From Escherichia coli (GTDB lineage: Bacteria > Pseudomonadota > Gammaproteobacteria > Enterobacterales > Enterobacteriaceae): a stretch of DNA of 64,000 bases. Below are positions 57,001 through 63,000 of the stretch, in pieces. Where the stretch lies: NCBI RefSeq assembly GCF_046105845.1, contig NZ_CP151004.1. One strand, 5' to 3'. The first letter of the stretch is position 1; every line of letters begins with the position of its first letter. The position numbers were made by a program.

Positions 57001-60000
57001 GTTATCGTGAACGTTAATGGGGTTTCTGAATTTCGCGCGCGTGACGTTTTGCTTATTGATATGTCTGCGGCTGATGTCGATCTCCGGCAATTTTGTAGTG
57101 AGCAATTGCTGGAGCCGATGGTACTGCGCGGCGAGTATTTTTCTGACCAGGCCCTTGATGTGGGCATGGCAGAGATTTCATTAATTCCTGAGTCAGAACT
57201 GATTGGTAAATCGGTGCGCGAAATTGGTTTTCGTACCCGCTACGGACTGAATGTGGTGGGGCTAAAGCGCAATGGCGTGGCGCTGGAAGGTTCGCTGGCG
57301 GATGAGCCTCTGCTGCTGGGCGATATCATCCTGGTTGTGGGTAACTGGAAACTGATCGGTATGCTGGCCAAACAGGGCCGCGACTTCGTTGCGTTGAACT
57401 TACCGGAAGAGGTGAGTGAAGCATCGCCCGCGCACAGCCAGGCACCCCATGCGATTTTCTGTCTGGTGCTAATGGTGGCGTTAATGCTTACCGATGAAAT
57501 CCCTAATCCTGTTGCCGCTATCATCGCCTGCCTGCTGATGGGGAAATTCCGTTGTATCGATGCTGAAAGTGCCTATAAGTCCATTCACTGGCCGAGCATT
57601 ATTTTGATCGTTGGGATGATGCCGTTTGCTGTGGCATTACAGAAAACGGGAGGTGTCGCGCTGGCGGTGAAAGGGCTGATGGACATTGGCGGCGGTTATG
57701 GGCCACATATGATGCTGGGTTGTTTGTTTGTCTTGTCGGCGGTTATTGGGCTGTTTATCTCTAATACCGCAACGGCGGTGTTGATGGCTCCGATTGCGCT
57801 GGCTGCTGCCAAAACGATGGGTGTGTCGCCTTATCCATTTGCGATGGTCGTGGCGATGGCAGCATCCGCCGCCTTTATGACACCGGTTTCTTCACCGGTT
57901 AACACACTGGTTTTAGGTCCGGGAAATTACAGCTTCAGTGACTTTGTGAAGTTGGGGGTACCGTTCACCATTATCGTGATGGCGGTTTGTGTGGTGATGA
58001 TCCCGATGCTGTTTCCGTTTTGACAAGAGGCTGATGTCGCATCCGGCGCTTATTGCCTGATGCGACGCAGACTCCAGCTGCTTACAGCGGTGAATCCTGG
58101 CTAATCTCATCGAGCGAAAGATGGAAGCTGGGAACAAAGACTTCCATGAAGTAGTCCATCTCCTGGCTGCGGCGCGCTTCAAGCGTCGCTTCCAGTCGCG
58201 TTTTTGCCAGCAAGAATTCATTATTTCCCGCCGCGAGTTCTTCCAGACATTTCAGATATGCACACAGTGCATCAGCCTGTTTCACCAGCGATTTTTCTTC
58301 ATCGCTATATGCATGCTCGTCAATTAACGGCGCAAAGATATCCCGCAGCTCTTCCGGAACCATATCGACCAGTTTTTGCTGAGCGATTTTTTCAATCGCC
58401 TTGTACTCCTGAGCGATTTGCGAATTGAAGTATTTCACCGGAGTAGGGAGATCGCCGGTGAGCACTTCTGAGGCATCGTGGTACATCGCCAGTAAAGCGA
58501 TACGTTCGGCGTTGACATTACCGCCAAATTTCCGATTTTTGATAGCTGCCAGCGCATGGGCGACCATCGCTACCTGCAAACTGTGTTCGGACACATTTTC
58601 CGTCCGCACGTTGCGCATCAGCGGCCAGCGGTTAATGAGTTTCAGGCGGGAGAGATGGGCAAAAAAATGGCTCTGTTTCATAGTGACCTTACGTATGATG
58701 ACATCATCAGGTCATTGTGGCGGGATAACACTGCCGGATGCAATCTCCGGCAGTGAAATTAAGATTACAGCTGATGATAACCAGAAAGGAAACGCGCGAA
58801 CTTACTCAAAGACAGCTCGATATCATCGACACGCGGTAGCGTGACAATGCGGAAGTGATCCGGCCACGGCCAGTTGAATGCCGTCCCTTGCACCAACAGA
58901 ACTTTTTCCTGCAACAGGAAATCCAGCACCATTTTCTGATCGTCGTGAATATTAAAGCGTTTGGCGTCGATTTTCGGGAACATGTACAGCGCACCGCGCG
59001 GTTTCACGCAGGAAACGCCCGGAATATCGTTGATCAATTCCCACGCGCGGTTACGCTGCTCATAAAGACGCCCGCCGGGAGTAATAAATTCACTGATGCT
59101 CTGATAACCGCCTAGTGCAGTCTGAATGGCGTGTTGCGCAGGAACGTTAGCACACAGGCGCATTGAGGCCAGCATTTCCAGACCTTCGATGTAACCTTTG
59201 GCGTGTTTTTTCGGCCCGTTCAACACCATCCACCCCTGACGGAAGCCAGCAACGCGGTACGTTTTCGACAGTCCGTTAAAGGTAATAGTCAGCAGATCAG
59301 GTGCCAGCGGCGCAATTGAGTGATGCTCAGCGTCGTCGTAGAGAATTTTGTCATAAATTTCATCGGCGAAGATAATGAGATTATGCTGACGTGCAATCTC
59401 CACTATCTCCATTAAAAGCTCTTTGGAATATACCGCGCCAGTTGGGTTATTTGGGTTGATAATAACGATCCCACGCGTACGAGGCGTAATTTTAGCGCGA
59501 ATATCATCAAGGTCCGGGAACCAGTCAGAGGATTCATCGCAAAGATAATGCACCGCTTTACCGCTGGAGAGCGAAACCGCCGCGGTCCATAGTGGGTAAT
59601 CAGGTGCAGGAACCAACATTTCGTCGCCGCTGTTCAGCAATGCCTGCATTGCCTGAACGATAAGCTCCGATACACCATTGCCGATGTAAATATCTTCCAC
59701 GGTAACATCACGCATGCCACGAGCCTGGTAGTGCTGCATGATGGCTTTACGCGCGGAGTAAAGCCCTTTGGAATCGCAATACCCTTGAGCGGTAGGCAGG
59801 TTGCGAATCACGTCAACGAGGATTTCATCTGGCGCGTCAAAACCGAACGGGGCAGGGTTGCCGATGTTCAGTTTCAGTACCTTGTTACCTTCTTCTTCCA
59901 GGCGTTTTGCTTCTTTCAGCACCGGACCACGGATGTCGTAACAGACATTCTCTAATTTGCTGGATTTTTCAATGGGGGACATGAATCTTGACCTTTTTTG

Positions 60001-63000
60001 CTGTTATCGCCACTCCCTGCCGTGGAAGTCAGCTTAGAACAATGTACTCCCCCAGGACGGCGTTTTGAAGGTCTGCAGAATAAGATTTTGCCAGAGGGGA
60101 AGACTCGATTGTGCTGTTAATAACTTAATAATGGCAAAATAATTAGGTGTATATGCTTAGTAATTAATGTTATGCAGTGAATTGTTCTGATTCTTAATTG
60201 TGAGTGTGGTTTTTTTATCTATAAGATAATTGTTTGAAAATGCCTCGTTTAAGAATTCACTAATGAATCGTGATGATGATATTTCCGCATTACGGAGAGT
60301 TTAACAGCGTGATGATTTCCGAGGTGTCGTAATGGGTGCAAGGTGTGAAACTATTGTTAAGCGGGATTAATGTATGAGGATGATGCTAATTAATTATTAT
60401 TTAATATTCAAAAAGGTTTTGTTGTGCTTATTAATAATAGAAGATTACTTTGCCTAACATAACATAACTTTGCATCAGATAATTCGCAATGACCCTTATA
60501 AATAAAAGGTTTTTGGGGTAAAATGCTCGCATAAATGACGGATCCCTGCTCTTGATGCCGCCTCACCATTGCTGTTTGTACGTGTTCGCGTATGACCAGC
60601 GATGCTGCACGAGAGTGGAACAAGGACTCACATTTACATTTATACAAACACGCGCATGTCATAAATACAAAAGAGTGAGTAACTTAATAGATATGCGATT
60701 CCTGAAGATATATTCTGTGATCTACTTCAGGCATTATAACGGAACAATGTGAGTCGCTTTTTTAGTGCAACTCATATGCATTTTTACTTTCGTCCGGGTT
60801 CCGGATGAAACTGCCAGGGAGGCACATTACAAATGGAATTGCTTGTTTGTGTGTGCACAGCATTAACCAGCTCAGTATGAGCCGCCAGTAAGTGATAATA
60901 TATGATAAGTGCAAATCGTCCGATAATTAACCTCGACCTCGATCTGCTGAGAACATTTGTTGCTGTTGCCGATCTGAACACTTTTGCTGCCGCAGCTGCC
61001 GCTGTGTGTCGTACTCAGTCCGCCGTAAGTCAGCAAATGCAGCGTCTGGAACAACTCGTTGGGAAAGAACTGTTCGCTCGTCACGGTCGCAACAAACTGT
61101 TAACTGAACATGGCATTCAACTTCTTGGTTACGCCAGGAAAATCCTGCGTTTTAATGATGAGGCCTGCTCATCATTAATGTTCAGTAATCTTCAGGGCGT
61201 GTTAACTATCGGTGCTTCAGATGAATCTGCCGATACGATCTTACCTTTCCTGTTAAATCGCGTGAGTTCGGTTTATCCGAAACTAGCGCTGGATGTCCGC
61301 GTTAAACGTAATGCCTATATGGCAGAAATGCTGGAATCCCAGGAAGTGGATTTGATGGTAACCACCCATCGTCCTTCAACGTTTAAGGCATTGAACCTGC
61401 GTACCTCGCCAACACACTGGTACTGCGCAGCGGAATACGTATTGCAAAAAGGCGAGCCGATCCCTCTTGTATTGCTGGATGATCCTAGCCCGTTTCGCGA
61501 TATGGTGCTGGCGACGCTTAATAAAGCAGATATTCCATGGCGACTGGCTTATGTCGCCTCGACGCTTCCGGCAGTTCGTGCGGCAGTAAAAGCCGGTCTT
61601 GGCGTGACGGCAAGGCCGGTCGAGATGATGAGTCCAGACCTGCGTGTGCTGAGTGGAGTAGATGGCTTACCGCCGCTACCCGATACCGAATATTTGCTGT
61701 GCTATGACCCGTCCAGTAATAATGAGCTGGCCCAGGTGATCTATCAGGCGATGGAGAGCTACCATAATCCGTGGCAATACAGCCCAATGTCTGCTCCGGA
61801 AGGCGATGACTCATTGTTGATTGAAAGGGATATCGAGTAATCGACGGACCATAGATAATTTCTGAGACAATAGTGTAAAAACGAGCCGCTGGGGGTGTTT
61901 TAAACCCCAGCGGCTTTTTTTTAGTAAAAAGCCTTCCTCGTATCGTGCAGAACGTACAAAACTGTTCATTTTTCAATCACCAGAGATTCACGTCCCGAAC
62001 GCACAAGTAATCGCCTGAAAAAAATCACCTGCTACAATGATGTTAAAAAATACGTAAATTTGTTGCTGCGTTTTTGTTATGGAATGACAAAAGCGTGTCA
62101 CAGATCAAGAAAATACTCTCTTTTGGGGGGAGGAATCGACACAAATTCCTGTCAAAATAGACCCGTATTTTTTCCATTGCTTCACAACGGACACGATTCA
62201 ACAACATCTAATTATCCTGGTGTCGTCAAGGATCTGGGGTGAAAGGGCATTAAATGCTAATGGTGTTGATATTATGTAAACTAATGTGAAGAAACTTTTG
62301 TTAAAGTTGACAAAAGGTTATAGAAAGGAGTAAAAGACCACATCAATTAGCTGTATAAAAGAATTTCTACAGTGATTGTAAGGTTTTTTTTATTCCTCCC
62401 CATGAATCGATGTGGCGTCCATCTGCCGTGAAGAGCAGTGAATCTGGCGCTACTTTTGATGAGTAAGCAATGAGTATGTCAACATCCACTGAAGTCATCG
62501 CTCATCACTGGGCATTCGCTATCTTTCTTATCGTTGCCATTGGCCTGTGTTGCCTGATGCTGGTAGGCGGTTGGTTTTTAGGCGGTCGCGCACGCGCAAG
62601 GTCGAAAAACGTTCCGTTTGAATCCGGTATCGACTCGGTCGGCTCCGCCCGCTTACGCCTGTCCGCCAAGTTTTATCTGGTGGCCATGTTCTTCGTTATC
62701 TTCGACGTTGAAGCGCTGTATCTGTTCGCATGGTCAACCTCTATCCGCGAAAGCGGCTGGGTAGGCTTTGTGGAAGCTGCAATTTTTATTTTTGTGTTAC
62801 TGGCAGGTCTGGTTTATCTGGTGCGTATTGGCGCGCTGGACTGGACGCCCGCGCGTTCACGCCGCGAGCGTATGAACCCGGAAACGAACAGTATCGCTAA
62901 TCGTCAACGCTAACCGCGAGGCATTAAGATGGATTATACGCTCACCCGCATAGATCCCAACGGTGAGAACGACCGTTACCCCCTGCAAAAGCAGGAGATC

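Follow-up and report, generated by a model that had tools for sequence, protein, structure and literature searches.

The divergently transcribed genes alaA and lrhA of Escherichia coli are separated by 919 bp of AT-rich DNA, and the question that this locus raises is why two genes should stand so far apart: whether the gap consists of their promoters and leaders, or conceals a gene of its own. We addressed this in a 64,000-nt stretch of an E. coli genome (NCBI RefSeq assembly GCF_046105845.1, contig NZ_CP151004.1; the whole stretch is referred to hereafter as the window), where a first-pass annotation made from the sequence alone had judged the gap long enough to hold a small RNA or small protein gene in addition to two promoters and the lrhA leader. 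Our analysis makes it very probable that the gap is the already-known shared control region of two divergent core genes, owing its length to the lrhA leader and to an inter-promoter spacer, with no hidden gene.

The window is E. coli chromosome, on which yfbS, yfbR and alaA are followed by lrhA and nuoA, and the identities of the AlaA and LrhA open reading frames (ORFs) to their K-12 counterparts (Table 1) confirm the flanking genes, the coordinates and the length first given for the gap (59983–60901), which is as long in K-12. By crude gene calls that delimit ~60 gaps in the window, this one is the longest (runners-up 662 and 629 bp, median 64.5 bp) and the remaining divergent gaps measure 341 bp or less, bearing out its description as unusually long. 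Its guanine-plus-cytosine (GC) content is 0.381, compared with 0.506 over the window, and falls to 0.302 over 60120–60480, the part first noted for AT-rich blocks; just 0.7% of the 361-bp segments of the window have an equal or lower value. The stretch is core DNA, present in 5425 of 5426 complete E. coli genomes. The K-12 RefSeq record has no annotated feature between the two genes, and among the closest genome and a spread of 20 sampled E. coli genomes the sole annotated feature in the gap is a copy of the insertion sequence (IS) IS1, in one strain. Shimada et al have already singled out the “920 bp-long lrhA-alaA” type-A spacer among the long divergent spacers of stress-response regulators.

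Most of this length is explained by published maps. Positions were interconverted with K-12 (NC_000913.3, v3) as window = 2,467,543 − v3 coordinate, with v3 = v2 + 1978. Table S1 of Kim et al (2012) places the start of yfbQ/alaA at v2 2,405,531 (231 reads), giving an untranslated region (UTR) of 52 nt, and that of lrhA at v2 2,405,034, giving a UTR of 371 nt; these fall at window positions 60034 and 60531, 497 bp apart with 496 bp between them, and are the only two starts listed between the genes. The two divergent promoters and the lrhA leader proposed at the outset thus correspond to mapped starts, and the independent check on transcripts that one published start table affords yields nothing further. 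Together the leaders occupy 423 of the 919 bp, 40% of the gap being lrhA leader alone, and the mapped lrhA start lies far upstream of its ATG, as befits a long-leader gene.

Both starts lie beside conserved promoter-like sequence. The putative alaA −35 and −10 hexamers, TTCAAA and TACATT, are ~88–89% conserved in 77 other Enterobacteriaceae genomes, versus 36% for the spacer between them, and TACATT sits 7 nt upstream of the mapped start; the alaA leader carries a Shine-Dalgarno-like AAGG at 59992–59995. On the other side, the mapped lrhA start is 7 nt downstream of the probable −10 hexamer TAAAAT, within a core-promoter block that is 68–78% conserved and invariant in some columns.

The arrangement itself is old. 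All 78 Enterobacteriaceae loci with both genes keep the divergent order of alaA and a LysR-type gene with a long gap (764–1140 bp, most 850–1013 bp), and the same order recurs in Erwinia, Proteus, Xenorhabdus, and Sodalis with gaps of 799–1032 bp; since order and length are kept across Enterobacterales, the length of the gap is old and maintained, whereas most of its sequence is not. Separately, on a Budvicia aquatica contig (L092, 916–2307) the LysR-type gene and alaA are separated by a gene for a branched-chain amino-acid transporter (Pfam Branch_AA_trans), and the protein called for alaA there, at 500 aa, has ~95 extra N-terminal residues, probably through a miscalled start.

The lrhA side of the gap is a leader whose post-transcriptional control has been established experimentally by others. 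Melamed et al (2023) remark on the “unusually long 371 nt 5′ UTR” of lrhA. Chimeras of this leader with small RNAs have been published from RNA interaction by ligation and sequencing (RIL-seq), those with McaS being the most numerous yet without repression, and reporter repression of lrhA has been published for UhpU (with a compensatory mutation), ArcZ (lrhA–lacZ), and RprA; a 2025 study reports that UhpU represses lrhA through the conserved part of UhpU close to its terminator. Hfq enrichment of the interval was found by Bilusic et al (2014), who initially filed it as the intergenic RNA “ig-lrhA-alaA”, then traced it to a ~1.5-kb lrhA transcript that is raised in an hfq mutant, with Hfq-bound leader fragments of ~150 and ~350 nt. 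Within the leader, Adams et al (2021) list two Term-seq 3′ ends, one at v3 2,406,933(−), window 60610, which appears in two sections of their Supplementary file 1, and one at v3 2,406,691, window 60852 (−50 from the lrhA ATG), with a Rho score of 1.06 (“No”) and an intrinsic terminator score of 3.75, a borderline value for a weak attenuator. Both ends fit the published short Hfq-bound leader fragments.

The whole lrhA leader folds better than shuffled sequence (z −2.4), and its first 80 nt, up to the 60610 end, fold to −22.5 kcal/mol (z −1.9) and are poorly conserved outside Escherichia. There is no conservation beyond that genus in the first ~250 nt (the 5′ two-thirds); between genera it is confined to the last 70–100 nt, with nearly invariant GGAATTGC, CACAGC, and AGTGA, the last of which is likely the weak ribosome-binding site of lrhA. 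The hairpin at 60788–60810 is preserved by compensation: in 15 distinct sequences from Escherichia, Citrobacter, and Salmonella, both partners have changed in 5 of its 10 pairs (covariation score 0.404, versus at most 0.157 in slid controls). This emerged from an alignment restricted to that clade; over 66 genomes, RNAalifold gave no consensus structure for the leader's last 125 nt, because of gaps in the alignment.

Pairing sites for the small RNAs were predicted from windowed seed-region duplexes, whose energies carry no shuffled control; full-length duplexes between small RNA and leader gave long uninformative loops, and counts of exact complementary stretches were indecisive. As expected of a small-RNA-regulated leader, seed-complementary sites are present and conserved in or beside 60833–60901. 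The predicted ArcZ site lies just upstream of this conserved block, in one that is 49% conserved; the predicted RprA/McaS site surrounds the nearly invariant CACAGC (60856–60861), with the 60852 Term-seq end inside it; and the predicted UhpU duplex agrees with the published repression of lrhA through the terminator-proximal region of UhpU. These exact positions are modeled ones. The covarying hairpin adjoins the predicted ArcZ site on its 5′ side. At 60817–60842 (plus strand), GGGAGG and the conserved GGAAUUGC atop a weak hairpin present two GGA motifs ~17 nt apart, a pair that, as an impression from sequence, may recall the spacing of paired CsrA sites.

Between the two starts lies the fastest-evolving part of the gap. 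Across genera, the identity of the spacer to the window is mostly 20–45%, rising to 57–70% over most of 60343–60412, and conserved islands are limited to 60076–60091, 60343–60412, and 60495–60504. The first of these, a box kept as CAAAATCTTCTTCTG (alaA sense) in most genera, agrees at 12 of 15 positions with YAGHAWATTWTDCTR, which we take to be the Lrp consensus, and would make a candidate Lrp site. To our knowledge, Lrp is the only described regulator of alaA. A chromatin immunoprecipitation sequencing (ChIP-seq) study of Lrp reports lrhA as a direct Lrp-activated target, an OmpR ChIP signal has been reported for the DNA between alaA and lrhA, and peaks from systematic evolution of ligands by exponential enrichment (SELEX) with RpoD, that is RNA polymerase holoenzyme, have been reported for the spacer (Shimada et al).

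Variation within the species is concentrated in the same place. Relative to K-12, the gap is 96.7% identical, with 30 substitutions and no indels, 26 of them in 60061–60422, three in the 371-nt lrhA leader, and none in the alaA leader. An allele at least 99% identical to that of the window occurs in just 699 of 5425 E. coli genomes, making it a minority haplotype, and the spacer appears to exist in distinct haplotypes within E. coli. Over the 362 bp of 60061–60422, divergence from K-12 reaches ~7%, and nine of the substitutions cluster in 60159–60175.

These observations are best accommodated by a shared control region that would work as follows. A conserved sigma-70-type alaA promoter would fire at 60034 to give a 52-nt leader opening with a conserved hairpin, while the lrhA promoter would fire at 60531; the ~500-bp AT-rich spacer, fast-evolving save for a few conserved boxes, may be where nucleoid-associated and global regulators dock. 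The lrhA leader, bound by Hfq, would act as a hub of post-transcriptional control, in which UhpU, ArcZ, and RprA pair with the conserved last ~100 nt, leading to less LrhA synthesis and less mRNA, and termination or cleavage within the leader would leave short Hfq-bound fragments.

Several points weigh against this account. The evidence for the starts is a single table, which may list gene-assigned starts alone, so that the AT-rich block may have further starts, weak or confined to certain conditions; the fragment lengths implied by the Term-seq ends (80 and 322 nt) match the ~150-nt Northern band inexactly; H-NS, in the one RpoD SELEX table consulted, is unflagged for the spacer; and the complete alaA leader shows no folding advantage over shuffled sequence (z +0.57), the support for its hairpin being purely comparative.

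The alaA hairpin is the minimum-free-energy structure of its leader, and among 65 distinct leaders its two loop-closing pairs are invariant, with the rest of the stem and loop of its top, CUUCC-ACGGCA-GG(G/A)AG, at least 90% conserved. Its base covaries (pair 23–40 is A–U in 42, G–C in 12, and G–U in 8), and 92% of cells are paired, versus 30–74% when the partners are slid. The element is retained in Erwinia (TTCCACGGCTGGAA) and Sodalis (TTCCATGGTTGGAA) and absent in Proteus and Xenorhabdus; it has no Rfam match, and we found no published description of it. A comparatively supported helix that begins at +2 of a mapped 5′ end has the character of a 5′-terminal stem-loop, and its most likely role would be to shield the mRNA from 5′-end-dependent decay; because the loop sequence is also fixed, the hairpin is possibly read by a protein as well. 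Neither it nor the lrhA leader shows the marks of a riboswitch or attenuator, with no Rfam family, no U-run after the alaA hairpin, and no RNAalifold consensus at the end of the lrhA leader, although the borderline terminator score at 60852 would allow a weak attenuator there. As AlaA is a major alanine-synthesizing transaminase, what a nearly invariant hairpin does at the 5′ end of its mRNA is a modest lead.

The main alternative to a role in RNA is that a dimeric repressor binds the nearly invariant CTTCC-ACGGCA-GG(A/G)AG (+10 to +25 of alaA), which would then be a DNA operator. The sequence forms an inverted repeat that is perfect in Erwinia and Sodalis (TTCCA-N4-TGGAA), it sits just downstream of the alaA start where repressors commonly bind, and its top, loop included, is conserved in sequence beyond the needs of RNA stability. 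We nevertheless regard an operator as unlikely: the flanks covary so as to hold pairing (A–U, G–U, or G–C at 23–40) and extend the helix in clade-specific registers, which fits an RNA helix and not base-specific protein–DNA contacts, and the helix begins at +2, like known 5′-terminal stabilizing stem-loops. AlaS, annotated as an alanine–tRNA ligase and DNA-binding repressor, motivated a comparison with the alaS control region, the one alanine-responsive case of DNA binding examined, where no similar element was found. There is no copy of TTCCACGGCAGG there, and a 9-mer shared by the alaA and alaS regions, GTGGCGATA, falls in a non-conserved part and was judged a chance match.

A second alternative concerns the fate of the lrhA leader RNAs, namely that the 60531–60610 fragment and the ~320-nt species ending at 60852 are not debris of decay but functional sponges, acting in trans on McaS, RprA, ArcZ, or UhpU. 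This would be compatible with a shared control region, to which it adds a function; if true, the lrhA leader would harbor a small RNA, and the gap would thus encode one after all. The Hfq-bound species of ~150 and ~350 nt are discrete, the Term-seq 3′ ends within the leader are abundant, the 60852 end falls at one margin of the predicted McaS/RprA site, and McaS, the richest partner in lrhA chimeras, does not repress, the authors of those data naming “McaS inhibition” as a possible consequence. Yet total RNA shows hardly any of the fragments, conservation outside Escherichia is lacking in the 5′ two-thirds of the leader, to which the whole 80-nt fragment belongs, a fragment that ends at 60852 would miss most of the predicted RprA/McaS site, and the literature that we found reports no effect in trans; we therefore consider trans-acting sponges quite doubtful.

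That the gap encodes a small protein is very unlikely. The first-pass annotation had dismissed the short ORFs here as having no obvious Shine-Dalgarno support, which does not hold for the best candidate, a 15-codon ORF at 60833–60880 that opens 10 nt past GGGAGG and is the only one with a good Shine-Dalgarno-like sequence. This ORF lies within the transcribed leader and stops 21 nt before the lrhA ATG, and the predicted ArcZ site overlies its Shine-Dalgarno-like sequence, such that an Escherichia-only peptide could couple small-RNA binding to lrhA translation. Its reading frame, however, survives in both Escherichia genomes compared (2 of 2), in 0 of 12 Citrobacter and Salmonella, and in 2 of the 77 genomes overall; in other genera the ATG is ACG, AAG, or AGG, whereas the neighboring GGAATTGC is kept, so that conservation at this point is not coding. 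Translation specific to Escherichia would be possible but is unsupported, and the row for the −50 3′ end in Adams et al (2021) carries no “uORF” flag. Over the whole gap, of the 59 ORFs with at least 10 codons on either strand, the most widely kept is complete in 16 of 77 related genomes, the suggested small ORF thus finding no conserved representative, and the one that reaches 16 overlaps the start of lrhA, a by-product of conservation there. The six longest have no Pfam match, and neither K-12 nor the sampled RefSeq genomes have a gene called in the gap.

The weakest proposal, an independent small RNA gene, equipped with a promoter and a terminator of its own, in the AT-rich block (~60100–60480), is extremely improbable, for although the 496 bp between the starts give it room and AT-rich DNA readily yields promoter-like sequences, of which two consensus matches are present, these are fewer than the shuffled expectation (3.1 ± 1.7), the gap (59983–60901) lacks a terminator-like site (the sole match is inside the alaA coding sequence), the block is the least conserved across genera and, with its share of the K-12 differences, the most variable within E. 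coli, no start is listed in it and no Term-seq 3′ end nearby, and the Hfq-enriched interval was attributed to the lrhA transcript by its own authors (Bilusic et al, 2014). A search of Rfam over 58500–62600 at E ≤ 10 returned only chance matches to eukaryotic microRNAs and small nucleolar RNAs, the latter being all that the block itself attracts. The extra small RNA first entertained for this gap is accordingly left with neither a start or promoter of its own (in a single data set), nor a terminator, nor a family or conservation, of the kind that an independent Hfq-type small RNA gene displays. A mobile-element remnant or repeat array was also considered and rejected, the gap containing one 15-nt two-copy chance match, no inverted repeats, and no tandem repeats.

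Table 1. Features of the alaA–lrhA region (window positions)
Feature	Position	Strand	Remarks
AlaA ORF	58765–59982	minus	100% identity to K-12 AlaA; ATG at 59982
alaA 5′ untranslated leader, 52 nt	59983–60034	minus	start is A at 60034 (Kim et al, 2012)
alaA mRNA hairpin, GCUGACUUCC-ACGGCA-GGGAGUGGC	60009–60033	minus	+2 to +26; minimum-free-energy structure of leader
alaA promoter, putative sigma-70 type	60041–60069	minus	−35 TTCAAA 60069–60064; 17-bp spacer; −10 TACATT 60046–60041
Conserved box CAGAATAAGATTTTGC, candidate Lrp site	60076–60091		~−43 to −58 from alaA start
AT-rich inter-promoter spacer	60093–60472		GC ~0.30; poorly conserved; hypervariable within E. coli
Consensus promoter-like match	60137–60108	minus	no more than chance
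Consensus promoter-like match	60454–60483	plus	no more than chance
lrhA core promoter, putative hexamers	60473–60530	plus	−10 TAAAAT 60519–60524; conserved CTTATAAATA 60495–60504
lrhA 5′ untranslated leader, 371 nt	60531–60901	plus	mapped start; Hfq-bound, small-RNA-repressed
80-nt 5′ leader fragment	60531–60610	plus	Term-seq end 3 nt past strong hairpin at ~60564–60607
T-run CGCTTTTTTAGTG, repeated insertion-sequence target	60755–60767		in lrhA leader
Leader hairpin, UUUCGUCCGG-GUU-CCGGAUGAAA	60788–60810	plus	z −4.0; structure kept, sequence varies
Predicted ArcZ pairing site	60808–60824	plus	ArcZ nt 64–79, −17.7 kcal/mol; covers GGGAGG 60817–60822
Candidate upstream ORF, 15 codons (MELLVCVCTALTSSV)	60833–60880	plus	GGGAGG 60817–60822, 10 nt upstream
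Predicted RprA/McaS pairing site	60850–60863	plus	McaS nt 44–57, −15.5 kcal/mol; RprA nt 61–70, −13.0 kcal/mol
Predicted UhpU pairing site	60874–60890	plus	UhpU nt 225–240, −15.0 kcal/mol
Nearly invariant AGTGA	60891–60895	plus	likely weak ribosome-binding site of lrhA
LrhA ORF	60902–61840	plus	99.4% identity to K-12 LrhA; ATG at 60902

Insertions also strike the control region. In strain EV36 mutant 5a, IS1 lies inside the T-run CGCTTTTTTAGTG of the lrhA leader, and an IS5 that a Keio acrA strain is reported to carry at −137 relative to lrhA maps to the same T-run (~60765); transposon insertions in the spacer raise PigU in Serratia and, by the same paper, LrhA in E. coli. Insertion sequences and transposons repeatedly target the region, and their insertions alter the behavior of laboratory strains.

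Two other gaps of the window have features of their own. The lrhA–nuoA gap (61841–62469, 629 bp) is likewise AT-rich, with a GC of 0.39 that falls to 0.27 at ~62250–62350, and published nuoA starts map to ~62343. The nuoA leader contains, just past a U-run and 9 nt before the nuoA ATG at 62470, a very abundant Term-seq 3′ end listed as “orphan” by Adams et al (2021) (K-12 2,405,082(−), ~62461 on the plus strand of the window). The lowest GC of the window belongs to a 662-bp gap between same-strand genes (11264–11925, GC 0.29), its minimum over 361 bp being 0.23 at ~11399.

LrhA ranks high in the networks for motility, type 1 fimbriae, RpoS, and CRISPR-Cas, which makes its long control region a genuine point of decision. 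What we describe is established knowledge with no new element, from which two modest leads emerge, a possible action of the leader fragments in trans and the part that the alaA hairpin plays. The closest comparison is the K-12 lrhA–alaA region itself (b2289/b2290), the same locus, onto whose window counterpart the starts, leader, Hfq binding, small RNAs, and Term-seq ends all map; it differs by the substitutions described above, which fall mainly in the AT-rich block, the strain of the window carrying a minority haplotype. The csgD–csgB and nanC–fimB spacers, grouped with this one by Shimada et al, are also long, AT-rich, and divergent, with many factor sites before a regulator of stress or lifestyle, whereas the alaA–lrhA spacer has far fewer mapped factor sites and is unflagged for H-NS in their table. 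In Serratia, alaA–pigU is the orthologous divergent arrangement, to which the upstream regions of Pectobacterium hexA, Dickeya pecT, and Yersinia rovM correspond by homology; similarity in sequence is low except in the promoters and the closing stretch of the leader.

The two leaders have separate parallels. A hairpin close to the 5′ end of ompA mRNA protects it against 5′-end-dependent attack by RNase E or RppH, and the alaA hairpin lies similarly near its 5′ end (+2, behind a single unpaired nucleotide), differing in that genera share an almost unchanged loop and upper stem, more than protection alone would call for. The leaders of rpoS, flhDC, and csgD, as is generally known, are several hundred nucleotides long, bound by Hfq, and targeted by multiple small RNAs upstream of a global regulator of motility or stationary phase, as is that of lrhA. 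For lrhA, all validated small RNAs repress, their predicted sites cluster in the last ~100 nt of the leader, and we know of no activating rearrangement like that of rpoS, with which lrhA nevertheless shares two of its small RNAs, ArcZ and RprA.

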